Source of the DNA: Microgenomates group bacterium
GTDB taxonomy: Bacteria > Patescibacteriota > Microgenomatia > UBA1400 > UBA12108
DNA: 37,965 nt
NCBI GenBank assembly: GCA_049286965.1
Contig: JBAQEX010000049.1
Coordinates: 1-37,965, forward strand
Direction: 5' to 3'
Below the pieces are notes generated by a model. It did not search any database. It was not told where the DNA came from and saw nothing but the letters and a program-made list of their open reading frames with translations. The position numbers were made by a program, and so were the translations under genes. Below, piece after piece: positions 4,248 to 34,968 of this stretch (positions are counted from its first letter, which is position 1; each line of letters opens with the position of its first letter).

Positions 4248-4693
4248 ATAAAAGTTTGAGATTTTGGGCGAGTTTGGAGCTATATTTGCGCAAAGTTGCG
4301 GGGAGGTCTCCCCTGCCATGGCCTGCCTGGGGGATTGGACTAGTTTTGGTCGTGTTTGGCACATCTCTCAAATATTCACGAGATTCGGTGGCGGGGGCGA
4401 GAAATACGAGAGAGGTGGTCATCACTGCTGCTAAGCGCGGAGACTACGAGACAGCGAGAGAATTATTAAACCATTACTCCATTAGACCATTAGACCAATT
4501 GGAAGACCTGGTTTATCCAGAGAGAAAAGTGGAGACGAGAATTGCTGAGCTAGAGAACAAACTAGAAATTTACCCGGAAAACAGAGAGATTTATCTGGGG
4601 ATTGCGGAGCTGTATAGGCAGCTGGGTAATGAGGAAAAGACGCAAGAATATAGAGAAAGGGCCAGGATTTTGGATCCGAATGGGGGCGAGTAA
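4244..4693 (+). CDS. Membrane-anchored TPR-like protein
   Basis: ATG 4244 overlaps the previous stop (ATGA), with GGAGG 8 nt upstream. One hydrophobic helix (WGIGLVLVVFG). TPR-like IYLGIAELYRQLGNEEKTQEYRERARILDP. Confidence 0.55.
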   Translation: MNKSLRFWASLELYLRKVAGRSPLPWPAWGIGLVLVVFGTSLKYSRDSVAGARNTREVVITAAKRGDYETARELLNHYSIRPLDQLEDLVYPERKVETRIAELENKLEIYPENREIYLGIAELYRQLGNEEKTQEYRERARILDPNGGE

Positions 4694-4726
4694 ATATCCT
4701 GTGAGGAGACACCTCCCAGCTTTGCT

Positions 4727-4788
4727 GTCCCGACTTGGCATTCTGCCACGTCTCCTGTTGAGGAGTCTCCTCAAAATCAGGTCAGACC
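4727..4788. repeat. Degenerate family-A-like element with central hairpin TTGAGGAG-T-CTCCTCAA (4758-4774)
   Basis: Left end GTCCCGACTTGG..GTCTCCTGTT resembles GGTCCGACCTGGTCTCCTGTT of copy 13324-13345. Right end is AGGTCAGACCTT. Lies in the convergent gap between 4693 and 4799. Confidence 0.35.
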
Positions 4789-4798
4789 TTCAAAATAG

Positions 4799-9007: not shown

Positions 9008-10233
9008 GATTTATTTGAAAAGTATAACAGAGCAATAAGCAGAAATCCCTCGGTAAGGCCGGTATTGATGGCGGCCGCAGGGGAGCCGTAGGAGGGAATA
9101 AAAGATAAATTGAGGACAGTATTTAAGATGGCGGCAGAAAGATATATCCCCAAAACTAATTTGTCTCGCTTTTTACCTATGAGCCCCCACATAAGGGGGG
9201 CGGTGATATAGAAAAGGGGAAGAGATATGGCCAGCAGGCGCAGAGTGGTTGCGGTCAGGTCCATGCCGGGCTTGACGAAGTTGACTAGGGGGGCTGCAAA
9301 CCAGAGAATGATGGCCACTAGAATACCAATTGCTGCCATTATCTTGGTAGTTTGGTTGATCAGTTTGGAGTTTGATTTTTGGAGATTGCCTTGAAGGGAG
9401 AGGGGGTAAATAACATTCATCACAAACACGGGAAGGACTAAAATAACGTCAAAAATGCGGTAGGCAAAACCATATTGACCCACTTCGGGTGATAAGCGAT
9501 AAATCCCTAGGATTATCGTGTCGATTTTGCTGGCGAGGACACTGGCGATCAAAATAAACCCCAAGATCAGAGAGCGCCGGAGGAGGGGGAGGATGGATCG
9601 CAAAGTTCCGATCTGTCTTTCGCTACGCTGCAGACCGCCGAAAGATCGGAACTTGGGGGGCAACAACAAGACGGAGCAAATAGCCATGGAGAGATAGCCC
9701 AAAGTGTTGGCCAAGATGAGGTGGGATAGAGTGGGGGAATATCTGAGCCAATAGAGAGTAAGGAACGTCCCTAGGAGCGAGCCCACAATGACTGAGATCG
9801 TTGAGCGCCAATATGAGAGCTTGTATTGAAACCAAGAATTACAAGAGGTATAAACACCCTGAAAGAGAATTGCTAAACTGCCGAGCCAAAAAATATTTTT
9901 GACAATAGGAGAATAGCCACCGGGCAAGTAGATAATAACCAAATTCAAAATTCCGATAATCAAAAAAGAGAGGAGAAGGCGGGTCAAGAAAATGGTCTGG
10001 GCGGTGGTTTGCATCTCAGCCTCGGAGCGCGATGAGCGGATGCCCTCGGCGTTTAGACCAAAGTCGATGGCAGTAAAGCCAACGGCCACCATGACCAAAA
10101 TCTTGGTGAGGTCGCCGTAGAGCGGAAGACCGGCGAGGCGGATAGTAAAGTAGGTGGTAATCAAAGTGAGGCCGGCGCCAAAAAACTTGGCAGTCAGCTG
10201 AGCGGCGGTGTTGCTAAAGATTTTTTTGAGCAT
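9004..10233 (-). CDS. MOP/Wzx-like polysaccharide (oligosaccharide) flippase
   Basis: 409-aa polytopic membrane protein with about 12 hydrophobic helices, adjacent to a Wzy-like gene. Carries an in-frame family-B repeat. Confidence 0.55.
   Translation of the reverse strand: MLKKIFSNTAAQLTAKFFGAGLTLITTYFTIRLAGLPLYGDLTKILVMVAVGFTAIDFGLNAEGIRSSRSEAEMQTTAQTIFLTRLLLSFLIIGILNLVIIYLPGGYSPIVKNIFWLGSLAILFQGVYTSCNSWFQYKLSYWRSTISVIVGSLLGTFLTLYWLRYSPTLSHLILANTLGYLSMAICSVLLLPPKFRSFGGLQRSERQIGTLRSILPLLRRSLILGFILIASVLASKIDTIILGIYRLSPEVGQYGFAYRIFDVILVLPVFVMNVIYPLSLQGNLQKSNSKLINQTTKIMAAIGILVAIILWFAAPLVNFVKPGMDLTATTLRLLAISLPLFYITAPLMWGLIGKKRDKLVLGIYLSAAILNTVLNLSFIPSYGSPAAAINTGLTEGFLLIALLYFSNKS
9600..9657. repeat. 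Family-B palindromic element, copy B1, in frame within the flippase gene
   Basis: GCAAAGTTCCGATCT..(28 nt)..AGATCGGAACTTGGGG with perfect 12-bp inverted arms (9603-9614 / 9643-9654). Translated as PPKFRSFGGLQRSERQIGTLR. Confidence 0.8.
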
Positions 10234-11680
10234 AGGGATAGTTTAACGTACAAAAGAGATATAGGAGCAGAATAAAGGATCCCTGGGGGGAGGTGAGGAG
10301 GTAGTGGTCGAAAAATAACAAGGGGAGCAATGGGATAATAATCCAAGCAGGGTCCGACCTGGTCTCACTGCTTGCTTTTGAGGTTCGACTAAACATCTTG
10401 GCTGATAGCCAGGATTTCTTTAGCAGGTCGGACCCTAGAGCAAGGACAATAACCGCAAGGACGCCGAAGAGACCAAACCAGGAAAGAAAAAGAGTAAGGC
10501 TATTGTGGTCGGGCTGGAGGAGACGGAAATTGGGGACAACTGAGGGGTAGGTAGAAATACTTGCTTGGGTACCAGTACCAAAAATGGGGAACTCGCGGAT
10601 AGTTGACAGGGAGACTCCCTGTAAAGTAGCGCGCTGCGAGAGCGAGAGGTCGGAGCGAGGAGGAGAGAGGAGGGAGGTGGCAAGTGAGTAATAGAGTAAG
10701 AGGGTAATAAAGTAATAAAGAAAACGTAATTTAAGATTTTTTAATAGATAAAGGGGGATGATGAGACCAAAGAGAGCGAGGGCGGCGGCGCGAGACTGGG
10801 TGAGAAAAATAATTAATAACACAGAAATTAGGGGTACCCATAGGGTCTGACCCGGTCTCCTGATTGTATTTTGAAGTCGACTAAACATCTTGGCCGTTGG
10901 CCAGGATTTCCTTAGCGGGTCAGACCCTCTGACGACCTGTTGTTTGCTTGCGTTGGGATTTGCAGTCTGACTGAGTTGGATAAGAATCAGCAAGCTAACA
11001 ACTGACCAGCCAGCGAGAATGTTGGGGTGAGAAAAAGTGCCGTAGGCGCGTAGTACGACATGATCCATAAAAGTGCCTAGAGCGATGCCAGGCGCGCCCA
11101 CAGCTACGGTCCGCTCGCCTAGGTAGTACACAAGCCCCCCGACCGAGTGGCCGAGAAATACTTGGACAGAGGCGAGGATTGTTTGGAAGAGGAGGGAGAG
11201 GGAGAGGGCGACCATAAGAATAGGCCGCAAAGTTCCGATCGCTCGCCTAGAATCGCGCAAGGATCGGAACTGGGGTAGCAGGGCTGTAAAAAACAAACAA
11301 TATAAAAGAAAGTGGAGAGACCAGGAGAGGGTGGCGAGGGGATTTTGAGAATATAGGAGATTTACCAATAAAATAGGCACAATTGTACCTATAGGGTCTG
11401 ACCTTCCCGCCTTGGCATCTGCGGGTTGGGCTCGTCCTTTAAGGTCAGACCCTTTAACCGCAAGAAACAGGACAATTAACGTATCTAGGAAGTAGATCGT
11501 GGGGGAGAGGTAGTCGATGCGGATGCCGTAGACCAAACTGGAGGCGGACCAGAAGTGAAACCCAAGCTGAGTAGAGGCAAAAAAGACAATGAGGCCGACA
11601 AATAGATTAGACAGTTTTGAGAGCAATAAAGAGCCTTCTGTCTTGACCGTGGCCGTCTGAGTAACTCGTGAATTCTGCAT
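10214..11680 (-). CDS. O-antigen ligase/Wzy-like polytopic membrane protein carrying four in-frame repeat insertions
   Basis: 488-aa uninterrupted ORF with many TM helices and a Wzy_C-like FLTQSRAAALALFGL segment. The 5' end is uncertain, because ATG 11680 overlaps jag by 74 nt. Confidence 0.65.
   Translation of the reverse strand: MQNSRVTQTATVKTEGSLLLSKLSNLFVGLIVFFASTQLGFHFWSASSLVYGIRIDYLSPTIYFLDTLIVLFLAVKGSDLKGRAQPADAKAGRSDPIGTIVPILLVNLLYSQNPLATLSWSLHFLLYCLFFTALLPQFRSLRDSRRAIGTLRPILMVALSLSLLFQTILASVQVFLGHSVGGLVYYLGERTVAVGAPGIALGTFMDHVVLRAYGTFSHPNILAGWSVVSLLILIQLSQTANPNASKQQVVRGSDPLRKSWPTAKMFSRLQNTIRRPGQTLWVPLISVLLIIFLTQSRAAALALFGLIIPLYLLKNLKLRFLYYFITLLLYYSLATSLLSPPRSDLSLSQRATLQGVSLSTIREFPIFGTGTQASISTYPSVVPNFRLLQPDHNSLTLFLSWFGLFGVLAVIVLALGSDLLKKSWLSAKMFSRTSKASSETRSDPAWIIIPLLPLLFFDHYLLTSPQGSFILLLYLFCTLNYPYAQKNL
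10350..10435. repeat. Family-A palindromic (MITE-like) element, copy A1, in frame
   Basis: Perfect 10-bp terminal inverted repeat GGGTCCGACC / GGTCGGACCC. Internal sequence ..GACTAAACATCTTGGC..GCCAGGATTTC.. is shared with A2 and A4. Translated as GSDLLKKSWLSAKMFSRTSKASSETRSDP. Confidence 0.85.
10835..10974. repeat. Family-A element, copy A2 (long form plus tail module), in frame
   Basis: 12-bp TIR GGGTCTGACCCG / CGGGTCAGACCC (10843-10854 / 10916-10927). Tail is TCTGACGAC..TTGGGATTTGCAGTCTGAC. Near-identical to intergenic copy A4. Confidence 0.85.
11227..11275. repeat. Family-B palindromic element, copy B2, in frame within the ligase-like gene
   Basis: GCAAAGTTCCGATC..(21 nt)..GATCGGAACTGGGG with 10-bp perfect arms (11231-11240 / 11262-11271). 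Translated as PQFRSLRDSRRAIGTLR. Confidence 0.8.
11385..11455. repeat. Family-A element, copy A3 (short form), in frame
   Basis: 13-bp perfect TIR AGGGTCTGACCTT / AAGGTCAGACCCT (11393-11405 / 11441-11453). Same subfamily as A5. Translated as KGSDLKGRAQPADAKAGRSDP. Confidence 0.85.
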
Positions 11681-13320: not shown

Positions 13321-13457
13321 TTTAAGGTCCGACCTGGTCTCCTGTTTGTATTTGAAGTCGACTAAACATCTTGGCCGTTGGCCAGGATTTCCTTAGCAGG
13401 CCGGACCTTCTGACGGCTAGGTGTATGTTAACTTTGGGAATTGCAGTCTGACCAACC
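13321..13457. repeat. Family-A element, copy A4 (long form plus tail), filling the rpmH-rnpA intercistronic gap
   Basis: AAGGTCCGACCTGGTCTCCTG..GACTAAACATCTTGGCCGTTGGCCAGGATTTCCTTAGCAGGCCGGACCTTCTGACGGC..TTGGGAATTGCAGTCTGACCAACC. Ends 1 nt from the rpmH stop codon. Confidence 0.85.
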
Positions 13458-16465: not shown

Positions 16466-18310
16466 TTACCCGCCAACATTTGGGGCTGCGTTAGATTCCT
16501 GCGGTGGATTGGCCACGGTTTTCTGGCGGTCGACGGCTTCCTGGGGGTTGGTGGTGATTAGAGCGTGTTCTTCGGGCGAAGCCACGACCTTCATGGCTAC
16601 GTGGTTTTGACCGGCGAAGAAGAGGGCTTCCCCGACTTCGGCAGTCAGGAGTAAGTGACGTTCTCCTTGGGAGAGGAAGAAAGTGCTGGCCAGTTTTTCG
16701 ATGGCACTACTACTTTGTTTCATGAGCACCTGGAGGGAAGAGTTTGAGACGATGGCCTTGCCATGGTCGCTCTTGAGGAAGTCTTCGACGTCCTGGGTGA
16801 TGGTGGTAAGCCCCAGGAAGTATTTGCGGGCGCGCTTGGCGATGCCGTAGAGGAAGGTGGCAGAATCTTCGGACTTCATGAGATACCAAGCCTCATCGAC
16901 GACGAGGAGGCGTTTTTTTAAATCTCTTTTTACTTTGGTCCAGATGTAGTCAAGAATAATGAAGATGGCGGTGGGCCTGAGCTCGTCGGTCAAGTTTTTG
17001 ATGCCAAAAACAGTGAGCTGATTGCCAAAGTTCACGTTTGATTTTTGAGAGAAAATACCCTGGAAAGAGCCCTTGACATATTTTTCAAGTCGATCGGCGA
17101 GGCCGCGGGCGACTGACTCTTCCATCCCATTTAAAACTTTGTACAAATCTTCCATCAGTGGAGGCTCGTTTTTGTGGGACGCTGGGTCACGACTAATCCC
17201 CTTCATCTGGTAGGTCATGATGAGAGCGCGGTCGAGGAGGGCTTCTTCTTGTGGATTCATGTCGCCCAACATAATTTTTAGTAAAGAGTGGAGCGAAATA
17301 ATTTTCATGGCGAGCTCATTTTCGTCTGGCTCATCGGTCTGGGGTAGCTCGAACGGGTTGATACGATTGGGGGAACCAAAGGAAAAGTCGATATAGGTGC
17401 CACCAATGGCGTCGTTGAGTTTGCGGTACTCGTCCTCGGGGTCGATGACGATGACTTCGGTGTCAAAGAGGAGGGAACGGAGAATCTCGAGCTTGACCAT
17501 GTAGGACTTGCCTGACCCCGACTTGGCGAAGACCACCATGTTGGCATTTTCGAGGGTGAATCGGTCGAAGACAACGAGTGAGTCATTGTGTTCATTGATG
17601 CCGTACATAATCCCCTCGTTAGCGGTGAGCTCACTACTAGTGAAGGGGAAAGTGGTGGCGAGGCTGGTTGTATCCATGTTGCGATTCATTTTGAGTTTGT
17701 CCAGGCCGGTGGGGAGAGTAGTCTTAAATCCATCCTCTATCTGGAGTGAGGCGGTTTTGGCAACGATGAGGAGGGCACCAAGGGCGGACTTGATGTGATT
17801 AGTGACACGGTCGAGGACGTCCTTTTTGTCGTCGCGGATCGTGATATAGAGCCCAAACTGGAAGAAGCGCTCGGCGCCTTTGGCTAGCTGTTCCTGGAGA
17901 GAGCGGGCATCTTCGAGCTTGACTTGGGTGTCGATATTGATGATGCGACCCCTTTGGATATCTCCCTGGAGCTCAGCTTCCATCTCGGCAATCTTCCTGC
18001 GCAAATCTTCTATGACCCCCTTGCCGTCGACGGGATAGATAAACATGGAAATGGAAAGGGAATGGGGGAAGTTGATAAGGGGGCTGAGCCAGTTGGCGTT
18101 GACGAAGCGAGGGTAGCCAGCCACAAAGAGGGTGCGGTAGTAGGTATCGTTGATTTTGATGTCGCTCCAGTCCACCTCGATGGCTTCTGGGGCAATAATG
18201 TCTTTGACGTTGGTGGTGCCCCGCGAGAGCATGGTGACGGCGGTGGAGACGGCAGGTCCAGAGCTAAGAGAATCTTCTTTTTTGCCACCAAGGGAGAAGG
18301 GCAGTTTCAT
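16466..18310 (-). CDS. virB4: VirB4/TrbE-family type IV secretion ATPase
   Basis: Walker A VFAKSGSGKSY and Walker B RLLVVDEAWYLM. N-terminal VirB4-type region VKDIIAPEAIEVD..YYRTLFVAGYPRFV. 614 aa. Confidence 0.85.
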   Translation of the reverse strand: MKLPFSLGGKKEDSLSSGPAVSTAVTMLSRGTTNVKDIIAPEAIEVDWSDIKINDTYYRTLFVAGYPRFVNANWLSPLINFPHSLSISMFIYPVDGKGVIEDLRRKIAEMEAELQGDIQRGRIINIDTQVKLEDARSLQEQLAKGAERFFQFGLYITIRDDKKDVLDRVTNHIKSALGALLIVAKTASLQIEDGFKTTLPTGLDKLKMNRNMDTTSLATTFPFTSSELTANEGIMYGINEHNDSLVVFDRFTLENANMVVFAKSGSGKSYMVKLEILRSLLFDTEVIVIDPEDEYRKLNDAIGGTYIDFSFGSPNRINPFELPQTDEPDENELAMKIISLHSLLKIMLGDMNPQEEALLDRALIMTYQMKGISRDPASHKNEPPLMEDLYKVLNGMEESVARGLADRLEKYVKGSFQGIFSQKSNVNFGNQLTVFGIKNLTDELRPTAIFIILDYIWTKVKRDLKKRLLVVDEAWYLMKSEDSATFLYGIAKRARKYFLGLTTITQDVEDFLKSDHGKAIVSNSSLQVLMKQSSSAIEKLASTFFLSQGERHLLLTAEVGEALFFAGQNHVAMKVVASPEEHALITTNPQEAVDRQKTVANPPQESNAAPNVGG

Positions 18311-18337
18311 ATATTAAAAGTATACAGCACTGCCCTT

Positions 18338-18452
18338 AGTACCAATAGGGTCTGACCTTCCGCGCTTAATATATCTCGCGGTTGGGCACTTCCTTTAAGG
18401 TCAGACCCTCTTGCGGCTTACTGTTTGCTGAGATTGGGAGTTGCAGTCTAAA
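18338..18452. repeat. Family-A element, copy A5 (short form plus tail), intercistronic upstream of virB4
   Basis: 13-bp perfect TIR AGGGTCTGACCTT / AAGGTCAGACCCT (18347-18359 / 18397-18409). Tail is CTTGCGGC..TTGGGAGTTGCAGTCTA. The internal stem CCGCG/CGCGG covaries with CCCGC/GCGGG of A3. Confidence 0.85.
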
Positions 18453-18460
18453 TAGTTTGT

Positions 18461-19099
18461 TTATTTAGTTATGTTGGGGGCGACGACGGCCTGCTCGTAA
18501 TCGGAGGCGGTCGTGAACTTTTGACCCTTGACGGTTGAGTTGTAAAAACTATGGAAAAGCTGCATTAGGTTTTGAGAGTTTAGTTGTCTGGCGCTTAGGC
18601 CGATCCGGCCCAATTGTTTAACAATATGATCTCTTTTTGGTTCTAGGTCTGCTTTGGCTTTTTGGATGAGGTCTTCGGTGATTTCGACCCTACCTGACAA
18701 AGTAATAAACTGATACGAGACGATGAGATAGAATTTTTTGTCGAGGACGTTTTGTTCGGTGATCGTGGTATCGATAAACTGGCGATAACTATGCATCCGC
18801 TCTTTGAGAACTTCGTTTTTCAATTTTTTCTCTTGGCTGGCCAATAACTCGAGGTAGGCGCTGATATCTTTTTTCTCGGATTTGATAACGATTTGGATAG
18901 GGAATGAGAGGGAATTGAGGAGGCCTGCGTAGGCATAGATGGTGGCGTCTTGTTCCTCTTCGGAGAGGAGACCAAAATTGATGGCAGAAGCCTGGATGAC
19001 AATACTACAAATGCCGTCTTTTAAGATAACAAGATCGTCCTGGATGGTTTCGACATCTAGGTGATCTTGGGTGGTGGCGACAATGATTGAGTCAGACAT
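18461..19099 (-). CDS. Hypothetical cytoplasmic protein resembling a stand-alone VirB4 N-terminal domain
   Basis: No TM and no Walker motifs. ..VILKDGICSIVIQASAINFGLLSEEEQDATIYAYAGLLNSLSFPIQIVIKSEKKDISAYL.. resembles the N-domain pattern of Gram-positive VirB4/TrsE-like proteins. Start is ATG 19099 (MSDSIIV) or 19126. Confidence 0.5.
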   Translation of the reverse strand: MSDSIIVATTQDHLDVETIQDDLVILKDGICSIVIQASAINFGLLSEEEQDATIYAYAGLLNSLSFPIQIVIKSEKKDISAYLELLASQEKKLKNEVLKERMHSYRQFIDTTITEQNVLDKKFYLIVSYQFITLSGRVEITEDLIQKAKADLEPKRDHIVKQLGRIGLSARQLNSQNLMQLFHSFYNSTVKGQKFTTASDYEQAVVAPNITK

Positions 19100-19117
19100 A
19101 GGACTATCGTAGCATAT

Positions 19118-19187
19118 AGTACCCATAAGGTCAGACCTTCTGACGGCACGTTGATTACTGTCATTGGGAATTGCAGTCCGACCAACC
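19118..19187. repeat. Family-A element, copy A6 (truncated: one terminus plus tail module)
   Basis: TAGTACCCATAAGGTCAGACCTTCTGACGGC..TTGGGAATTGCAGTCCGACCAACC. The tail is near-identical to the A4 tail. Sits between the stop at 19193 and the next gene's start. Confidence 0.75.
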
Positions 19188-19192
19188 TTGGG

Positions 19193-20185
19193 TCAATTCG
19201 ACGCTTGGAGCTCGATGGGGGAGAGGATGGTGTTGTTGACCACAAGACTCTGCGGGGCAAAAGTAAGGCCCATCCGATCTACTTCGATGATATAGCTAGA
19301 CGGGGTGAGGGGAGTGGAAGTATAAAACTGACCGAGTGAGTTGGTTTTCATGGCGCGCTGGGGGATGCCATCGGAGCTGACGATTTGGACGATGGCATTT
19401 TCTACCAACTTGCCACCCTGGTCTACGACAACCCCGGTGATCAAATTGGGGGTTTTGGGGGGAGCAGGGAGCGTGATGTTTTTGGGGATAGGTGCGGTTG
19501 CGCGGACAGTGGCCTTTGGGGCCGAGGGGGCGGCAAAGACCACATTGGTAGATGGGGCGGGGGTTGGCACTACCATTATGGTTGGTGTGGCCGAGTCTGT
19601 TGGATTTGCGACAACTGGGTGTGGTGTGACACCGGAAACTTCGGTGGCGGGCTTTAGCTTGCGTACGACGATGCTCGGCCTGGAGACGTCTTCTGACATA
19701 ACTGCGCCTTGAGTCTGGGTGATTTGGGGCAAACTCGTAAAAATGCTGTCGAGAGATTTGACGATGCTGGCCTCTTGATCGCTCAAGTCAGAGAGAGGGG
19801 CTGGTGAATGATTGATGTTTGGAGCCTTGATGGTTTTAGTGATTGTATTTACTGCACCCTGAGCGCGCGCGGTGAATAAAAACAACCCAGGGATTTTGTT
19901 GGTTTTTTGCCAGGTGAAGCGGGTCGGGCGATAGATGGCTTTAACAAAGGCTGTAATCCACTGGTCGAGGGGGCGGTCTTCGACGGGGAAAAATGCTAAG
20001 CCGGCGCCAAAGAGGATGGATAAGATGACGAGGGGCCATTTGACGATAAAGATCAGGTTGCTGGCGAAAAATAGATAGGCTAGTACGAGACCACCGGCAA
20101 GTTCGAGGAATTGTTTGAGAGTCATGTCTCCTACCAGGCGAAACTGGTACTGAGTGACGTTTTGGGGGATGGGGTGTTGCTGCAT
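19193..20185 (-). CDS. PrgI-family (VirB3-like) membrane protein fused to a Pro/Thr/Ala-rich linker and a carboxypeptidase-regulatory-like beta-sandwich domain
   Basis: N-terminus IPQNVTQYQFRLVGDMTLKQFLELAGGLVLAYLFF plus a second TM, the PrgI pattern. C-terminus ITGVVVDQGGKLVENAIVQIVSSDGIPQRAMKTNSLGQFYTS..YIIEV. Confidence 0.65.
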   Translation of the reverse strand: MQQHPIPQNVTQYQFRLVGDMTLKQFLELAGGLVLAYLFFASNLIFIVKWPLVILSILFGAGLAFFPVEDRPLDQWITAFVKAIYRPTRFTWQKTNKIPGLFLFTARAQGAVNTITKTIKAPNINHSPAPLSDLSDQEASIVKSLDSIFTSLPQITQTQGAVMSEDVSRPSIVVRKLKPATEVSGVTPHPVVANPTDSATPTIMVVPTPAPSTNVVFAAPSAPKATVRATAPIPKNITLPAPPKTPNLITGVVVDQGGKLVENAIVQIVSSDGIPQRAMKTNSLGQFYTSTPLTPSSYIIEVDRMGLTFAPQSLVVNNTILSPIELQASN

Positions 20186-20189
20186 ATAT

Positions 20190-21311
20190 TTATTTTAATA
20201 AGTAACTTGAGATTTGTCCGTCTAACAGTCTTAGTGTTAGGTGAGTATCAGTGGCACCAATTAATTTTTGATAATTTATAATTGGCAAGGTGATGTTTTT
20301 TTTGATAACACCATTTTCGTATATGTTTACAATAACACCATCTTTAGTTCTTCTCACTATAATTGGGAGATTGCTCGACCAAGCCACATCACCGACAGCC
20401 TCTGTATCATATGGCTCTTCGGTTATGGCGTTATATATTATTGCTGTTTGACCGGCAACAAGAATAGAATCTTTATTGTCGTTGACTACACAGTAGTTTG
20501 CTTTCCAGGACATTGTTTGTTGTGAGTCACTAAGATTAATTATCCTACAGACAGAGGCCAATTCTCCATCTGCCTCAGCAACCAATAATAGTTGATTATT
20601 TTGTAGAACGTCTAGGGTTGTGGCGTCTGTCTGCAATATAACAGCATTTATTTTAGTTACCAAATCTATCTTGATCAAATCAGATTTTCTCGTGAGAGGG
20701 CTGCTATTAGTTAAGAGATAGACAAAATGACCATCACCACCGATTGTGGCTGCTTCAATGTTTTTACCAGAAGGCGAGATGATATTTTTTTTGGTGTTAT
20801 CAACAACATTGAGAACAGTAGCCATTGTTTTTGTTTTTTCATCTAAGACAACAATCCACGGATAATTGTTTGACCACCTTCGAACCTTGCCTTGATAAAT
20901 AATTCTTGGACTAGCCCCATCAGAATATTCCATGAGGTTCCCCGTGATTTTATCTATTCCCACCAAGCCAATCTTTGTCTCTTTCATATTTACAGACAAG
21001 AAGCCTTGAGTATCAAAATTTAATTCGGGTTTTTCATCGAGTGTTATGTTAATCTTTTTTTGCTTGGGGATGTTGATGGAGATTTTTTTGTCAACGTACC
21101 CATTTTTTTTAAAGGATAATTCATAATCTCCCCTTTTAAGCATGGGAGTCTTTGTAAAAAACTCATCGCTGTCAATATATACGTGGGAATCTGGGGGATC
21201 TATCGATATTTTTAGACCATATTGCCAGTTGAGGTATATTGACGCTGATGCAAAAAAAAGCAATATTGCAGCTAATCCTATGCCTGATGCTAAATAATAT
21301 TTTTTATTCAT
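20190..21311 (-). CDS. Membrane-anchored PEGA-domain protein with a beta-rich C-terminal region
   Basis: N-terminal TM (LASGIGLAAILLFFASASIYL). PEGA-like LKISIDPPDSHVYIDSDEFFTKTPMLKRGDYELSFKKNGYVDKKISINI. Very AT-rich gene. Confidence 0.6.
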   Translation of the reverse strand: MNKKYYLASGIGLAAILLFFASASIYLNWQYGLKISIDPPDSHVYIDSDEFFTKTPMLKRGDYELSFKKNGYVDKKISINIPKQKKINITLDEKPELNFDTQGFLSVNMKETKIGLVGIDKITGNLMEYSDGASPRIIYQGKVRRWSNNYPWIVVLDEKTKTMATVLNVVDNTKKNIISPSGKNIEAATIGGDGHFVYLLTNSSPLTRKSDLIKIDLVTKINAVILQTDATTLDVLQNNQLLLVAEADGELASVCRIINLSDSQQTMSWKANYCVVNDNKDSILVAGQTAIIYNAITEEPYDTEAVGDVAWSSNLPIIVRRTKDGVIVNIYENGVIKKNITLPIINYQKLIGATDTHLTLRLLDGQISSYLLK

Positions 21312-21321
21312 AATTGGTTGG

Positions 21322-24174
21322 TTATTTAATGGGCCTCGTACACATAGTATTTATATTACATCTATCTTTTAGGCTGCTAAACTTTTCGTAAAAATCTTTC
21401 TGTGGACAAATTGACCCTCCCTCAAAGAAGTTCTCTGCGGTTGAAATGGCAAAATGCGAGTGCTCAGGGGTTATCGCTGCATTTTTCCCTGATTGGTCAG
21501 TAGTTGCCATAACTTCTCCTACACTAACCCTTTGTCCTGCGCTTACGTATATGCCACAGTTGTGGGCGTAATAATAGTATCTACCATCATCACCTTTTAG
21601 AATGATATATTTCCCGCCCAATTCATCGTTCATAACGACCATGGAGACAGTTCCGCTAGTATATGCGACAACGGGGAGATTTTTTTCTGGGTCCTGATAA
21701 GCGGACTGGCCAGTGAATATATCAACTGCCATTACTCCATCCCAATGGTAGCAAGCATAATCTGTGAAACCTGAGACTGGAAATGCGTATTTTTTGTCGT
21801 TCGAAAAAATGATATTTCCTGGAGATGGCTTCGGCTGGCTTTGTGCATTACAAAGATATGAATCTTCTGATTGCTTTGCACTAGTTTCTATTTTTGAGGT
21901 GATAATGGCGTCGTTGCCAAGAGACATGGAAATGGTGATGCCGCCTACCGCAACTACTATTGAGGTGGTGGCGATAGAACTAATTGTCGCTCCTACACTA
22001 TTTACAAATCCAGCCCACCACGTACTAGCAAGTGCCCCAAGTGAATTCAATGCTCCTCCGGCCCATGCCGAGATGGCGCCCGCCTGCGAGTATAAGAAAC
22101 CAATAAGTGCGCCAATCCCCGTGCCGATTGCCAAAACTGCCCACAAAGGGGCCGCGAATCCAATAATGAAAAATGAAATTAAGGCGATTCCAAAACCAAT
22201 AATTGCACCTATAATTGTTGGTCCGGCGATCCCGATAAGCATGGCGATCCCTGCGAGATTTTTCAGTACCCAGCCTGCGACAACGTCGGCATTTTTGATG
22301 GCTTCTGGGGCTCTTTTGGCTTGTTGCATGACCCAGAGCCCCGCTTGTATTGCAAAAGTTGCTCCACCAGAAAGAGATCCGGCAACAAGCCCCGCGCCCA
22401 CCCAAGCCATGAATTTTCCCGCTAGTTTTTCTCCACCAATTTTTGCTCCTTGTTTTATTAACCAGTTTCCAAACTTGATCCGATAGAAGGTTTTGGCAGA
22501 GTTGATAAATCCTTCATATGAATACCCGCCATTTTTGTACCAGGTTAAGCCAGTTTTGAGCCAACTTGGGAGATTTTTATTTGCTGCAATTTTGGAAATC
22601 CAACCACCCCATGATGCTAGGCGATGATCGGAGGAAAGAAAAAAGGCAAGGGTTCGATGATTGTTTAAAAAATTGTTGTATGTTGTAGAGATGCCTTCGC
22701 GAATATTAACAATGGCACCATAAATATTTCTGACTATCGGAATATTTGCTGGGGATAGAGCAGTTTTAATTTTGAGAATAGTTTGATCATAGGCGAGCCT
22801 AGATTTGTAGATACTATCGATTAGACCGTGATTTTCGCCTAGGTACTTTTGGATATTGTCGAGTTGTGACTTGATATCTGAAGCACTATATCCCGAATTC
22901 AGTAATTGTTTGGCAAGTTGTTCGCCGGAATAGCCATTTCTAGTTAATGCAATAATCGTTGGGTCTACGCCAGCACTTTTGGCAATATGTGAGACGAGAC
23001 CTGCAGGCCTGAGGCCCAATATGTCGGGTAGGTCACCGGGTCCCGGTTCAAGACCATGAGTAATGCGCTCGAAAAATGTGCCCGTTGATGGGTTGTTGAT
23101 GGTTGCCTCAATTAGCCTCTCTTGGTCCACCCTCGTAAGCTGATATTTTTTTATCAGCTCTGGGGTAAGCGCTTTTCGAAGAGCCCTAACTTCGGGAGAA
23201 TCTTTTTGGAAGAATCTATCTCTAAGTGAAGGAGATTCAACTTCTTTGATTGCTGATACCCGCAATGACTCGATTAAATCTTTGCCTAGGGCACTTGGGT
23301 TGTTTCCCCCAACTCCATTGTTTTTTTGCCAGGTATTGATGGCGGACTCTAAGCCATCTCTAGATTCTGTGACTGTAGGCAGGAATGTTTGATTAACCTC
23401 AACCAAACTGCGAGAATTTAGGTTATTTTCCTCTCTACTGAGTTTTTCATTATTGAGTAGGGATGTAAGACCGCTCGAGACAATTCCCAAATCTTTTCCT
23501 TCTGTAACTAGGGTGTTTTCCAATGTCCTCCAGGACTGAGAAGAAAGTAGGGCGTTTTCAATAATTGCTTGAGTTTCAAGCTTGGCTTTTATTGGATCTC
23601 TGGTGTCAATATTTTGTAGGGCCGGCGAGAGCTCTTGGATGAGAGTTGATCGCATTTGCCGGATATAAGTCGAAGAGGATGTGCCAGAGTTTTCTAATGG
23701 TTCTAGGGCTTGGGAAATTCGCGACTCTAGAAGGTTTTGAGTTTGCCAATATTTTTGTGACCTTTTAACAGATTCATTGAAAGCATTAATTTCTACTTTC
23801 GGATGAGCTACTTTTTGATCCACCTCCTCCAGGTGAGTTTGATAAGTCCTAAGAATATTTTCTCTAGTTTCTCGATCTGGGATGGATGACTCTTTTTGCT
23901 TGCTAGCAAATAGCAAAATATTGTTGTATAGGGAGCGATAGTTGGTCGGATTGTCTAGGTCCAATATTTTGTCACCTAGGAGGTTGTTGCGCTGGAAATC
24001 GTCAACCAAGGCCTTGACTTCGCGATTAGAGAAAATGACTTTGGAGTCTCCACTGCCGAGCTCGTAGTCGTCTTTTGGGTGGCGAATAAGCTGAGAAAGA
24101 AGCTCTAATACACCAAATGGAGTACTAAAATTGCGAATTAGCTCTGATTTGGTGAGATTTGCCATACCTCCCAT
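21322..24174 (-). CDS. 950-aa protein: helical N-terminal region, Gly-rich multi-TM block, C-terminal M23 (LytM-type) peptidase domain
   Basis: C-terminus YHWDGVMAVDIF..GDDGRYYYYAHNCGIYVSAGQRVSVGEVMATTDQSG..TPEHSHFAIS fits the M23 HxxxD / HxH pattern. TM block at about aa 590-760. Confidence 0.65.
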   Translation of the reverse strand: MGGMANLTKSELIRNFSTPFGVLELLSQLIRHPKDDYELGSGDSKVIFSNREVKALVDDFQRNNLLGDKILDLDNPTNYRSLYNNILLFASKQKESSIPDRETRENILRTYQTHLEEVDQKVAHPKVEINAFNESVKRSQKYWQTQNLLESRISQALEPLENSGTSSSTYIRQMRSTLIQELSPALQNIDTRDPIKAKLETQAIIENALLSSQSWRTLENTLVTEGKDLGIVSSGLTSLLNNEKLSREENNLNSRSLVEVNQTFLPTVTESRDGLESAINTWQKNNGVGGNNPSALGKDLIESLRVSAIKEVESPSLRDRFFQKDSPEVRALRKALTPELIKKYQLTRVDQERLIEATINNPSTGTFFERITHGLEPGPGDLPDILGLRPAGLVSHIAKSAGVDPTIIALTRNGYSGEQLAKQLLNSGYSASDIKSQLDNIQKYLGENHGLIDSIYKSRLAYDQTILKIKTALSPANIPIVRNIYGAIVNIREGISTTYNNFLNNHRTLAFFLSSDHRLASWGGWISKIAANKNLPSWLKTGLTWYKNGGYSYEGFINSAKTFYRIKFGNWLIKQGAKIGGEKLAGKFMAWVGAGLVAGSLSGGATFAIQAGLWVMQQAKRAPEAIKNADVVAGWVLKNLAGIAMLIGIAGPTIIGAIIGFGIALISFFIIGFAAPLWAVLAIGTGIGALIGFLYSQAGAISAWAGGALNSLGALASTWWAGFVNSVGATISSIATTSIVVAVGGITISMSLGNDAIITSKIETSAKQSEDSYLCNAQSQPKPSPGNIIFSNDKKYAFPVSGFTDYACYHWDGVMAVDIFTGQSAYQDPEKNLPVVAYTSGTVSMVVMNDELGGKYIILKGDDGRYYYYAHNCGIYVSAGQRVSVGEVMATTDQSGKNAAITPEHSHFAISTAENFFEGGSICPQKDFYEKFSSLKDRCNINTMCTRPIK

Positions 24175-31738: not shown

Positions 31739-32089
31739 TTAGTAGGCTTTGGGAGGGGTGATGTTGCCACCCAAGATGTCGATACCAAAGAAGTACTGGA
31801 TGATGAGCATGACTGCCCAGGCAGAGGCTACGACTGCGAGACCCACTAGTGCAGCGGTGATGCGATCGCGAGCTTCTTGAGTTTTGCCTTTGTCTCCACC
31901 TGAACTAATCCATTGGATGCCACCCCAAATGAGGAAAGCAAAAACCATGAGGGCTGAAACTAGGAGTGCTCCTTGGACGGCACCTTTAATGAGGGTACCA
32001 ATATTGGTGATTGCAACACCTTCTGGTTTGCTGATAGATAAGTCCGGAGCCGCTGGGGCTGCTTGGGCTAATTTGACTAGAAATGACAT
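31739..32089 (-). CDS. T4SS pilin-like protein (paralog 6)
   Basis: IWGGIQWISSGGDKGKTQEARDRITAALVGLAVVASAWAV core shared with paralogs. RBS AAGGAG. Confidence 0.7.
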   Translation of the reverse strand: MSFLVKLAQAAPAAPDLSISKPEGVAITNIGTLIKGAVQGALLVSALMVFAFLIWGGIQWISSGGDKGKTQEARDRITAALVGLAVVASAWAVMLIIQYFFGIDILGGNITPPKAY

Positions 32090-32127
32090 ATATTTATCTC
32101 CTTTTCTTAATATTAGTTTTTATTTTA

Positions 32128-32430
32128 TCATTTAGCAAGGCCGATACCAAAGAAATAGTCGATGAGGAGGTAAACGGCCCAGGCAGAGGCCACAATGGCC
32201 AGCCCTACAATCCCATTGGTTATTTTGCTTCTGGCTTCTTCGAGCTTGCCCTTGTCGCCGCCACTCATGATCCACTGGAGGCCGCCGTAAATTAAATACA
32301 TAAAAGTGGCAAGACCCGCGACTAAAATAATTGCAGAAAATGATTTGCTGACGAAAGTACCAAGGTCCGTATTGATCGCAACTCTTGACTTGGCTTCGTC
32401 ACCGATATTTATGTCAAATGTTTTTGCCAT
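32128..32430 (-). CDS. T4SS pilin-like protein (paralog 5)
   Basis: IYGGLQWIMSGGDKGKLEEARSKITNGIVGLAIVASAWAV. Confidence 0.7.
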   Translation of the reverse strand: MAKTFDINIGDEAKSRVAINTDLGTFVSKSFSAIILVAGLATFMYLIYGGLQWIMSGGDKGKLEEARSKITNGIVGLAIVASAWAVYLLIDYFFGIGLAK

Positions 32431-32434
32431 ATGA

Positions 32435-32776
32435 TTATCCTGTTGTGGGCCATTTAAAGTTTAATAAGTCCATGCCAATTGCGGTCTCGATGAATTTGAC
32501 GATGACATAGGAAGCAGCCAAGAGGGCTAAACCTACTAGGCCCTGGGTGATTTTGCCTCGAGCCTCTTCGATCTTGCCTTTGTCACCGCCAGCTGTGATC
32601 CAAGTGATACCACCGAGTAAGAGATAGAGTAGAAAGGCAAGTCCGCCCACCAGGATAATGGTCTGCCAGAGCGTGGCAATTGTGACGGCAAATTGCTGGG
32701 CTTGACCATCCCCAGATTTACCACCTCCTGGAACTGCTAGATTGGTGATTTGAGCAAAGGCTCGTTTAATAAGCAT
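32435..32776 (-). CDS. T4SS pilin-like protein (paralog 4)
   Basis: LLGGITWITAGGDKGKIEEARGKITQGLVGLALLAASYVI. Start trimmed to ATG 32776 (MLIKRAF), 4 nt after the upstream stop at 32781. Confidence 0.7.
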   Translation of the reverse strand: MLIKRAFAQITNLAVPGGGKSGDGQAQQFAVTIATLWQTIILVGGLAFLLYLLLGGITWITAGGDKGKIEEARGKITQGLVGLALLAASYVIVKFIETAIGMDLLNFKWPTTG

Positions 32777-32780
32777 ATAT

Positions 32781-33155
32781 TTATTGGAACTTGATAGCTC
32801 CCCCTGTAAGTATTGCGGCAGGATTGAGTATATTGATCCCGAGCGCTTTACCAATGATCCAAGTAATTGAGTAAGAGAGGGCGATCACGATGAGGCCGAT
32901 TGCTCCATTTGTCATCATACCCTTGGCTTTGTCGATCTTGCCTTTGTCGCCGCCAGCCGTAATCCAGTTGAGACCACCCAAGAGGAAATAAAGTACGAAA
33001 GCGAGCCCAGCTACGATAGTAAGAACCACCAGAACATTACTGATAAGCCTTTCTATGGCACTGGCGGCACCACCTGCACCAACACCAGGTTGATATCCAC
33101 CTGGAGTAGTGATGGTGGTAAAGTCGATCCCACCGGCTGCTAAATATTTGGTCAT
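32781..33155 (-). CDS. T4SS pilin-like protein (paralog 3)
   Basis: LLGGLNWITAGGDKGKIDKAKGMMTNGAIGLIVIALSYSI. ATGA overlap with the upstream gene. Confidence 0.7.
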   Translation of the reverse strand: MTKYLAAGGIDFTTITTPGGYQPGVGAGGAASAIERLISNVLVVLTIVAGLAFVLYFLLGGLNWITAGGDKGKIDKAKGMMTNGAIGLIVIALSYSITWIIGKALGINILNPAAILTGGAIKFQ

Positions 33156-34404: not shown

Positions 34405-34618
34405 TTTTATTGCAGAGTTGGAAAATAAAGTAGTAGAACAGCAAAGGCTCGCAAATACGCAAATGATCCCAGATTGGGCTAGGGGAGTGGGCAACTGGCT
34501 GGCCACCAATCCGTGGCGAGTGCTCGTGCCAATGAGCGCATTGGCTTATGGCTTGTTACGCATGACATATGGCAGTAGTTTTAGAGAATTAATACTTGGT
34601 TTATTTGGAGGATTTTAA
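34388..34618 (+). CDS. Small single-pass membrane protein, candidate anti-sigma factor
   Basis: Overlaps the sigma gene's 3' end. One TM (WRVLVPMSALAYGLL). No zinc-binding anti-sigma motif seen, so the call rests on position only. Confidence 0.4.
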   Translation: MKAESSFIAELENKVVEQQRLANTQMIPDWARGVGNWLATNPWRVLVPMSALAYGLLRMTYGSSFRELILGLFGGF

Positions 34619-34968
34619 TGATTAAACCATTACATCATTACACCATTAGACCATTTATAAGATGGGGAGCGATGGGCGTCTGGATAGCGTATGTGTGGAG
34701 TACGACCCTAGCGGGGCTCGCCATCCACCCATACCAGTCGGTGAGGCGGATGGTGCTAAATAAACCGATTTTATTGCCCGTGGTGATGTCGCCGCTAATG
34801 GGACTGGTGGGGTTATTTGTGATTGGAAGGGTAGGTAGTTTTGTTTTTACACTCGGGACGATTGGACGAGAAATGGTGGCGCTGGTGTTGGGGAGTACTT
34901 TAATAGGACTTTTACTGTGGCAAGGATTATTATTGTTTTTGGTGGCGAGGTTTTGTCGAGCGCGCTAG
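34618..34968 (+). CDS. Small polytopic membrane protein
   Basis: 116 aa with about 3 TM helices. TAATG overlap with the preceding gene. Confidence 0.5.
   Translation: MIKPLHHYTIRPFIRWGAMGVWIAYVWSTTLAGLAIHPYQSVRRMVLNKPILLPVVMSPLMGLVGLFVIGRVGSFVFTLGTIGREMVALVLGSTLIGLLLWQGLLLFLVARFCRAR

Follow-up and report, generated by a model that had tools for sequence, protein, structure and literature searches.

The contig JBAQEX010000049.1 of a Microgenomates group bacterium (assembly GCA_049286965.1) was analysed over its whole length of 37,965 nt, which is referred to as the window in the following. On its minus strand, the window comprises a gene for a polytopic membrane protein that contains four copies of short, hairpin-forming repeat elements within a single open reading frame (ORF). 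Three of these copies belong to a family designated A, one of them being extended by an additional tail module, and the fourth belongs to a family designated B. The gene and its insertions are as follows:

10214-11680, minus strand: host gene, Wzy_C/O-antigen-ligase-like polytopic protein of 488 aa, a single uninterrupted ORF
10350-10435, minus strand: A1, A-long copy from the 86-nt subfamily, read in frame within loop 4 (residues ~416-444), peptide GSDLLKKSWLSAKMFSRTSKASSETRSDP
10843-10927, minus strand: A2 core, A-long copy from the 85-nt subfamily, located in loop 3, peptide GSDPLRKSWPTAKMFSRLQNTIRRPGQTL
10928-10974, minus strand: tail module on A2, 47 nt, terminal repeat in common with A2, peptide SQTANPNASKQQVVR (repeat family D1)
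11228-11275, minus strand: B2, family-B hairpin (AGTTCCGATC...GATCGGAACT), read in frame within loop 2, peptide PQFRSLRDSRRAIGTL
11394-11452, minus strand: A3, A-short element of 59 nt with A-type terminal repeats and a different interior, in frame in loop 1, peptide GSDLKGRAQPADAKAGRSDP

The copies A1, A2 and A3 share one orientation, and each of them is bounded by a perfect terminal inverted repeat of 12 bp (GGGTCCGACCTG / CAGGTCGGACCC for A1, GGGTCTGACCCG / CGGGTCAGACCC for the A2 core and GGGTCTGACCTT / AAGGTCAGACCC for A3). The three family-A copies, their common orientation and their coordinates, which had been reported in a preliminary description of this DNA, could thus be re-derived. 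The translation also agreed with this description in that the A copies and B2 are read in frame, that approximately 110 of the 488 residues of the protein are derived from repeats and that the ORF is uninterrupted. As had been stated before, the inserted peptides are basic, K+R exceeding D+E in all four loops (4/3, 4/1, 8/1 and 6/3 per loop). For the ends of the peptides, a correction is necessary. A2 is a composite of an 85-nt core, which comprises a deletion of one nucleotide compared to the 86-nt A1, and of the separate 47-nt tail module, and its translation is GSDPLRKSWPTAKMFSRLQNTIRRPGQTLWV with the tail peptide SQTANPNASKQQVVR in front. Due to the difference of one nucleotide, the second half of A2 is read in another frame than that of A1 and ends with ...LQNTIRRPGQTLWV, resulting in GQTLWV instead of RSDP. 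The rule that the copies start with GSD and mostly end with RSDP therefore does not extend to the end of A2.

With up to one mismatch, the motif GGGTCYGACC of the terminal repeats was found 13 times in the window compared to 2.4 expected occurrences, a number reached by none of 100 shuffled sequences (0/100), and every match falls within an element copy. For the family-B pattern, 7 matches were determined compared to 1.9 expected. A function of the 10-mer as DNA uptake sequence was considered and rejected, since it was never found outside an element and conservation extends to the interiors.

The host protein comprises about 12 transmembrane helices according to hydropathy and two AlphaFold models, and its residues 284-410 match the Pfam family Wzy_C (PF04932) with an E-value of 3.6e-7. 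The score of 30.5 bits lies slightly below the curated cut-off of 31.7 bits, which illustrates how insertions lengthen and disguise proteins; the orthologue on the related contig L121 clears the cut-off with 44.7 bits. PF04932 is precomputed for almost all of the 364 database homologues, of which the few named ones are assigned to Candidatus Collierbacteria/Microgenomates (candidate phyla radiation). Invariant in the family are R350 and the residues Q389-P390-D391-H392, and a profile search of PDB sequences resulted in a weak match to WaaL (7TPG, E = 0.11). The neighbourhood of the gene is conserved. In it, rpmH, rnpA, yidD, yidC and jag are succeeded by the Wzy-like gene and by genes for a Polysacc_synt flippase-like protein and an RNase H; dnaA and dnaN lie on the other side. 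In the window as well as in the syntenic contig L145 of a relative, the start of the Wzy-like gene overlaps the 3' end of jag (KH/R3H) by 74 nt (window 11607-11680, L145 9791-9864). The public gene call for the orthologue P0003 uses an internal start, by which approximately 70 N-terminal residues are lost.

Among 84 aligned orthologues (354-488 aa, median ~400 aa), the window protein is the longest, and its excess over a typical orthologue corresponds to its ~110 repeat-derived residues. In the other 83 orthologues, 105 columns show a conservation of 90% or more, and the window protein matches 103 of them. Judged by these sequence features, the host gene is intact and working and no pseudogene, the possibility of a pseudogene having been raised in the preliminary description as an argument against its own proposal. 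Only two, one and two of the six frames are open in the three A copies (2/6, 1/6 and 2/6), and the frame had to be restored each time, so that an intact ORF would be very unlikely without selection. The use of open, stop-free frames only, together with the 103 retained columns, bears out the earlier proposal of frame-preserving repeat insertions into loops under strong selection.

Besides the four insertions in the Wzy-like gene, further copies of both families were found in the window. The bit scores in the following lines were obtained with a covariance model (R1), which was built from the consensus structure of an alignment of 26 unique A-long copies.

4700-4789, minus strand: decayed A-type copy 3' of the ribosomal protein L25 gene, terminal repeat at 4780, 27 bits
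9601-9656, minus strand: B1, family-B hairpin in the neighbouring Polysacc_synt flippase-like gene, in frame, peptide KFRSFGGLQRSERQIGTL
13325-13457, minus strand: A4, non-coding A-long core and tail between rpmH and rnpA, 105.7 bits
18348-18459, minus strand: A5, non-coding A-short core and tail between a TraC-like gene and a VirB4-type ATPase gene
19128-19189, minus strand: A6, stand-alone tail-type element with its own hairpin and one terminal-repeat copy, between PrgI-like and TraC-like genes

Family A consists of a terminal inverted repeat of 9-12 bp (GGTCYGACC...), which encloses interchangeable interiors, namely A-long with 85/86 nt (A1, A2, A4), A-short with ~60 nt (A3, A5) and the tail with ~50-60 nt. 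The tail is joined to cores at 10928, 13409 and 18409, occurs alone at 19128-19189 and makes its own hairpin with a terminal-repeat copy. The termini of family B differ from those of family A. For the family-A copies, folding energies of -28 to -35 kcal/mol with z-scores of -4.3 to -5.9 were calculated (A1: -34.8 kcal/mol, z = -5.4; A3: -29.6 kcal/mol, z = -4.6), and B2 folds with -22.9 kcal/mol. The consensus structure of A-long comprises a conserved 13-bp outer stem and an inner stem, and 8 pairs show double compensatory changes, as for example one pair with GC in 13 and AU in 12 cases. A1 and the A2 core scored 99.5 and 114 bits with R1, respectively. While the A2 core is 95-97.5% identical to copies in L145, its identity to A4 amounts to only 89% in the core and 83% for core and tail, which is less than the near-identity assumed in the preliminary description.

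A metagenome scan with the A-long interior resulted in 24 further loci. The search with a covariance model, proposed in the same description, was performed on ~283 kb of related metagenome contigs and yielded 35 unique strong A-long copies. Most copies are located at gene boundaries. The intergenic ones are packed between co-directional genes, with a distance of 10-20 nt from the element to the next start codon. Inside coding sequence lie 14 of the 35 copies, and all of these (14/14) are in sense orientation and in frame. Their hosts other than Wzy are C39/M23 peptidases, in which the element directly precedes the signal anchor, and a soluble ATP-citrate-lyase-like protein. A pattern of the terminal repeat only proved too generic when compared to 185,579 genomes, unrelated hairpins of Planctomycetes and Proteobacteria being among the matches listed. 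The A-long core was not found in viral contigs, and a protein search with a synthetic concatenated peptide of 83 aa gave no matches.

Some of the copies outside the Wzy-like gene touch the ends of genes. In L128 (8212-8219) and L130 (1840-1855, identical in L132), the stop codon of the upstream gene lies inside the element and is provided either by the terminal repeat (TGA) or by the sequence GCTAAGG (TAA); here, the elements have rewritten the 3' ends of genes. The copies in front of the signal-anchor helix of C39/M23 peptidase genes (L127 2594-3916, L136 1931-3268, identical in L138, and L137 2146-3270) contain an internal ATG (AAG ATG TTT) as a plausible start for MFSRLQNTIRRPGQ, followed by a hydrophobic core. 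From this sequence, A-long may supply the start codon of the peptidase and the positive N-terminal part of its signal peptide. A minimal remnant with two terminal repeats around TGCTAA (GGTCCGACC-TGCTAA-GATCGGACC) was found in L148 (3229-3519) and could originate from an internal deletion or represent an excision footprint.

Several findings show that the repeats exist as elements of the DNA and not as motifs of proteins. In the window, non-coding copies occur at 13325, 18348 and 19128, some of them with stop codons in the frame that encodes GSD..RSDP. One or two of the six frames are open per element, and the other open frames of the A3/A5 DNA recur as the peptides GLTLKD...KVRPYW and GSDLKG...GQTLWV, which were found in the orthologues P0005, P0012 and P0013 and in the ATP-citrate-lyase-like protein. 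This switching of frames, together with the non-coding copies, excludes that GSD..RSDP is a conserved protein feature, the second objection named in the preliminary description. Presence, type and frame of the elements differ between the orthologues. All four loops are variable among the 84 aligned proteins (11-85 aa), their contents being A-long, A-short (in two frames), tail, B or other peptides with the appearance of repeats, and many orthologues carry no element at all at a given loop. Recurrent among the other loop peptides are FENLRIWDLR, PCTSSAKAREKCLQTL, RRLFDRRPEQSSSRDAEGGRS and RNSRLQVEKGS...ERRVL. Accordingly, the comparison with insertion-free orthologues suggested earlier shows that the same four loops have, lack or swap elements. 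Further unrelated palindromic families of the type GAGAATTT/AAATTCTC were observed in spacers (L145 1705-1760, L149 892-988, L150 2209-2301 and 2941-3065), and, as protein (FENLRIWDLR and similar), families of this type also occupy the same four loops in many Wzy orthologues.

The gain and loss of elements becomes visible in the comparison with L145, the genes of which are 70-83% identical to those of the window at the DNA level, as elements are present or absent at different spacers of the two contigs. Some A-long copies of L145 are matched in the window by no element or by a remnant at most. In its Wzy gene, loop 2 carries A-long (B2 in the window), the pairwise alignment shows no tail module at loop 3, and loop 4 contains the other A-long subfamily. 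Its flippase gene also carries a B copy. A4 is missing from the rpmH-rnpA spacer in L145 and L150, and for A5 the orthologous site in L145 is a clean empty site. An ORF of 208 aa, which takes the place of A4 in L145, was examined as a candidate for an autonomous element and rejected; it has neither terminal repeats nor a family match. The decayed copy at 4700-4789 has kept its left terminal repeat intact, and part of its interior has been replaced, while L145, L148 and L150 contain an intact A-long at this position downstream of L25 (16672-16763, 7171-7262 and 16808-16900, respectively).

In the AlphaFold models (pLDDT, the predicted local distance difference test, of 57 for the first; pLDDT of 71 and predicted template modelling score, pTM, of 0.76 for the second), the repeat segments form stretches of low confidence between the helices, with a pLDDT of ~45-60 compared to 90 and above in the helices. 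Neither model had a significant match in the PDB according to Foldseek. In repeat-poor orthologues, the insertion loops are short (5-14 aa), net positive and variable. They alternate with three long conserved loops, which hold invariant R/H/D residues and are charge-balanced. In this enzyme family, the protruding loops and the cleft are described as lying at the periplasmic side (model of PglS, aligned to WaaL; PMC12800693). Based on the positive-inside rule and on the periplasmic position of the protruding loops and the cleft, the four insertion loops most likely face the cytoplasm. This placement agrees with the other hosts, in which the element lies in the positive N-terminal region before the C39/M23 signal anchor or in a soluble cytoplasmic enzyme. 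The earlier suggestion that the elements remodel exposed loops is not supported by loops that are short, net positive and likely cytoplasmic.

Altogether, we consider it probable that the hairpin elements are tolerated in the loops of a working enzyme and filtered by selection, and that they do not serve as a device for the diversification of loops. A Collierbacteria-like genome would have been colonised by several short, non-autonomous hairpin families, and most of the spreading copies would come to rest at gene boundaries. One stop-free frame of the sense orientation would encode a hydrophilic, basic and probably disordered peptide, and a copy in coding sequence would survive only if it is read in this frame, if the downstream frame is kept and if the extra peptide is harmless. 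In the 12-helix glycan ligase/polymerase-like enzyme, the harmless places would be the four short loops facing the cytoplasm, all four of which are filled. The peptides would be neutral and the insertions tolerated passengers. Survival of this kind would explain the uniform orientation and frame of the coding copies (14/14) and their restriction to cytoplasmic loops.

Several points weigh against this explanation. With 85, 86 and 59 nt, the lengths of the cores are not multiples of three, and each junction must restore the frame. The cytoplasmic placement is derived from the positive-inside rule and the alternation of the loops, with no Foldseek match to a solved structure and a weak profile match to WaaL (7TPG). 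Only one clean empty site was found, and many loci are syntenic or originate from related populations, which makes the copy counts less than fully independent. In the window, transposases of whatever kind were looked for and not found, and a tblastn search of the 283 kb with an approximate IS608 TnpA query, which is a weak test, gave no match. Finally, the copies at orthologous sites far outdo their host genes in conservation, which is not expected of passively tolerated junk.

The last point is based on two loci. Loops 1, 3 and 4 are occupied in L145 as well, and between the Wzy genes of the window and L145 (9791-11278), A3 and A2 are 93.2% and 95.3% identical, compared to 74.6% for the non-repeat coding sequence and 61% for the third codon positions. 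In the same way, the copies 3' of the L25 gene are 88-93.5% identical compared to 74-76% for the L25 gene itself (L145, L148 and L150). That the insertions are recent relative to the divergence of the protein, as the preliminary description had concluded, is therefore doubtful for the three of four sites common to L145, where repeats with an identity of 93-95% stand in coding sequence with 74.6%. Since the sites are shared and the identity of the repeats is far above that of the host, recent insertion is not the whole story. The conservation must be caused by constraint through a trans-acting factor, by gene conversion from a conserved master copy or by repeated replacement at the same sites, and the different A-long subfamily at loop 4 of L145 hints at replacement.

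This conservation is also a starting point for another explanation, which assumes the same origin of the elements and differs on why the copies persist. The elements would be kept by selection as nucleic-acid structures, namely as binding sites of host proteins, as strand-polar signals or as mRNA hairpins that act on processing, stability or the pace of translation after helix pairs. The identity of orthologous copies (88-95%) above that of neighbouring genes including a ribosomal protein gene (74-76%), the preservation of the hairpin through compensatory changes, the orientation of nearly the whole family on one strand and the tight position of intergenic copies between co-directional genes, with a start codon 10-20 nt on, would all fit. 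However, close relatives differ freely in the presence and type of elements at identical spacers and loops, copies have decayed or been internally deleted (window 4700-4789, the L148 remnant), and the conservation could also stem from gene conversion or from the constraint of a mobilising enzyme. In addition, the elements have no terminator-like T-run and no match in Rfam. We regard selection for nucleic-acid structure as rather unlikely. A role as terminator or promoter was tried as well and rejected, the matches not being above background; in the window, neither an Rfam family nor a tRNA was found.

The strand orientation requires separate consideration. The C-rich strand (negative GC skew) carries the sense form in 32 of the 35 A-long copies. 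The GC skew of the window is positive throughout (1-37965), with no switch at dnaA/dnaN (dnaA 13676-15040). For Collierbacteria and relatives, a chromosome-wide G/C strand disparity, possibly due to unidirectional replication, was reported (PMC7143001). The positive skew without a switch matches this disparity, which implies that the family is essentially co-oriented along the chromosome. Within the hairpin, mismatches of the outer stem favour the sense strand (14 G-T compared to 2 A-C, the outermost, mostly unpaired column pair being left out), whereas a fixed mismatch of the inner stem favours the opposite strand.

Across more than 20 junctions, no consistent target duplication was observed. 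Conservation of the flank TAT(N)GGTAC is limited to one side, and this flank is present in the empty site too, and a one-sided (G)TACC stands ~4-5 nt from the stem in approximately half of the copies. Single-strand transposons and repetitive extragenic palindromes (REPs) are recognised by their hairpins and tied to the lagging-strand template (PMC6006769, PMC5027513), and REPs carry a conserved 5' tetranucleotide (PMC8266576). By analogy, the elements could have been mobilised as single strands by an enzyme of the HUH/Y1 type, as in REP/RAYT or in the insertion sequences (IS) of the IS200/IS605 group, a suggestion that we put forward tentatively. It would explain the lack of target duplications, the one-sided flank and the near-uniform strand orientation. 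No parent insertion sequence with the same ends was found in the 283 kb.

Going one step further, the elements could be a conserved strand-polar component of Collierbacteria chromosomes and no decaying junk. A dedicated protein that recognises single-stranded hairpins would hold their sequence more constant than that of ribosomal protein genes, would orient nearly all copies on one strand of a chromosome with strand asymmetry over its whole length, and would allow them to sit even in essential genes. To this idea we assign a low probability.

[quoted passage not shown] Perfect 12-bp terminal inverted repeats with variable interiors, several types of interior on the same termini as in MITE families, and a TA on both sides of some copies correspond to such an origin, while a consistent target-site duplication is missing from the 20 and more junctions. 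Moreover, the inner stem, which is not needed by a protein that binds terminal repeats, covaries, the orientation is strongly biased to a single strand, the conserved flank is one-sided, and no transposase with matching ends was seen. Classical MITEs are thus an improbable explanation.

That the GSD...RSDP segments are true conserved protein modules, spread by duplication or convergence, with the similarity of the DNA being secondary, is extremely unlikely. It is true that many orthologues share these peptides, which are invariably placed in loops and have the basic character expected of cytoplasmic loops, but the same DNA occurs in non-coding copies with stops in that frame and in other frames elsewhere, the segments are missing from most orthologues, and the compensatory changes conserve a hairpin of nucleic acid. 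Furthermore, the 47-aa A2 peptide retrieved just 2 weak hits when searched with phmmer among 1.84 billion representative proteins. A decaying pseudogene or an assembly artefact caused by the repeats, which can misassemble metagenomes and which would fit a protein that is the longest of 84, can practically be dismissed in view of the intact ORF, the 103 of 105 matched columns and the same gene order with repeat-bearing loops in independent assemblies from other samples (L145, L146, L148, L149, L150, L121/L143 and L141), the last of which argues against misassembly.

Among the known systems, the Rickettsia palindromic elements (RPEs; Ogata et al. 2000, 2002), hairpin repeats inserted in frame in many genes (summarised in PMC10969869), are by analogy the closest counterpart to the elements tolerated in the Wzy-like enzyme. 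Both are short palindromic repeats in several families without a transposase of their own, and both are located between genes as well as in frame in unrelated coding genes, at places compatible with function; in the present case, four copies lie in Wzy and one in the flippase gene, and 14 of 35 A-long copies are coding. In spite of this similar behaviour, the present elements are not members of the RPE families, since the host, a member of the candidate phyla radiation, is unrelated to Rickettsia. With ~60-135 nt compared to ~150 bp, the present elements are shorter. Their families are modular, with interchangeable interiors on one terminal repeat, four of them occur in a single gene, almost the whole family is co-oriented on one DNA strand, and the conservation of copies at orthologous sites exceeds that of the host genes. 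RPEs, in contrast, have been described as old and decaying.

The REP/BIME/REPIN elements with their RAYT enzymes and the palindromic MITEs of the IS200/IS605 group resemble the present elements in being hairpins without target duplications and with a motif on one side (PMC8266576, PMC6006769, PMC5027513, PMC3116915); as with REPs and BIMEs, units with shared ends are clustered, mostly at gene boundaries, and their orientation is linked to the strand. In contrast, REPs are extragenic, 20-50 nt long and preceded by a tetranucleotide, usually GTAG (PMC8266576), while the present elements comprise 59-86 nt, lie in coding sequence in 14 of 35 cases and are accompanied in approximately one half of the copies by the flank (G)TACC at a distance of ~4-5 nt from the stem. 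A TnpA-REP/IS200-type gene was found neither in the window nor by the weak tblastn search over 283 kb. With classical MITEs, A1-A3 share the terminal inverted repeats but not the target-site duplications. ERIC, BOX, Correia and the cyanobacterial MITEs (PMC10969869) are likewise small non-autonomous repeats with an open frame and occasional in-frame fusions. Unlike the occasional in-frame copies there, ~40% of the sampled copies of one family are in frame here, with up to four copies in one gene, and the target duplications typical of those elements were not seen. Our literature searches on the candidate phyla radiation, Patescibacteria or Microgenomates did not bring up any account of elements of this kind. 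The present elements are a second, independent system of coding palindromes besides that of Rickettsia.

Some observations in the window and in related contigs concern other subjects. A type IV secretion/conjugation-like cluster (16466-24174 and 31739-33155) includes a VirB4/TraG-type ATPase, TraC-like and PrgI-like proteins, a PEGA-domain protein and an M23 peptidase, as well as three to four tandem paralogues of a type IV secretion system pilin (direct repeats D2, D4 and D7). A tandem octamer motif, CCATTAGA / CCATTACA, follows AAT.ATTAAA at two distant sites (4453-4506 and 34617-34670). The contig L149 (identical to L055, CAYFZD010000014.1) is titled 'uncultured Pseudomonadales bacterium', yet it is syntenic with the window and carries the same elements, so that this bin is probably mislabelled or contaminated.

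To our knowledge, in-frame coding palindromes have been mainly a curiosity of Rickettsia for 25 years. In the uncultured hosts described here, with their tiny genomes and thousands of metagenome assemblies, co-occurrence across genomes could reveal the mobilising enzyme. Gain, loss and replacement become measurable as rates at defined protein loops, and the loops allow a test of which kinds of peptide are tolerated in a polytopic membrane protein, and at which of the two membrane sides. The insertions also create spurious 'conserved motifs', which matters for the annotation of the proteomes of the candidate phyla radiation. That the elements are conserved above their host genes and oriented on a single strand was unexpected. 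If they were indeed strand-polar hairpins recognised by a protein, they would form a link between mobile DNA, the replication of these genomes, for which a unidirectional mode has been proposed, and remodelled loops of proteins.

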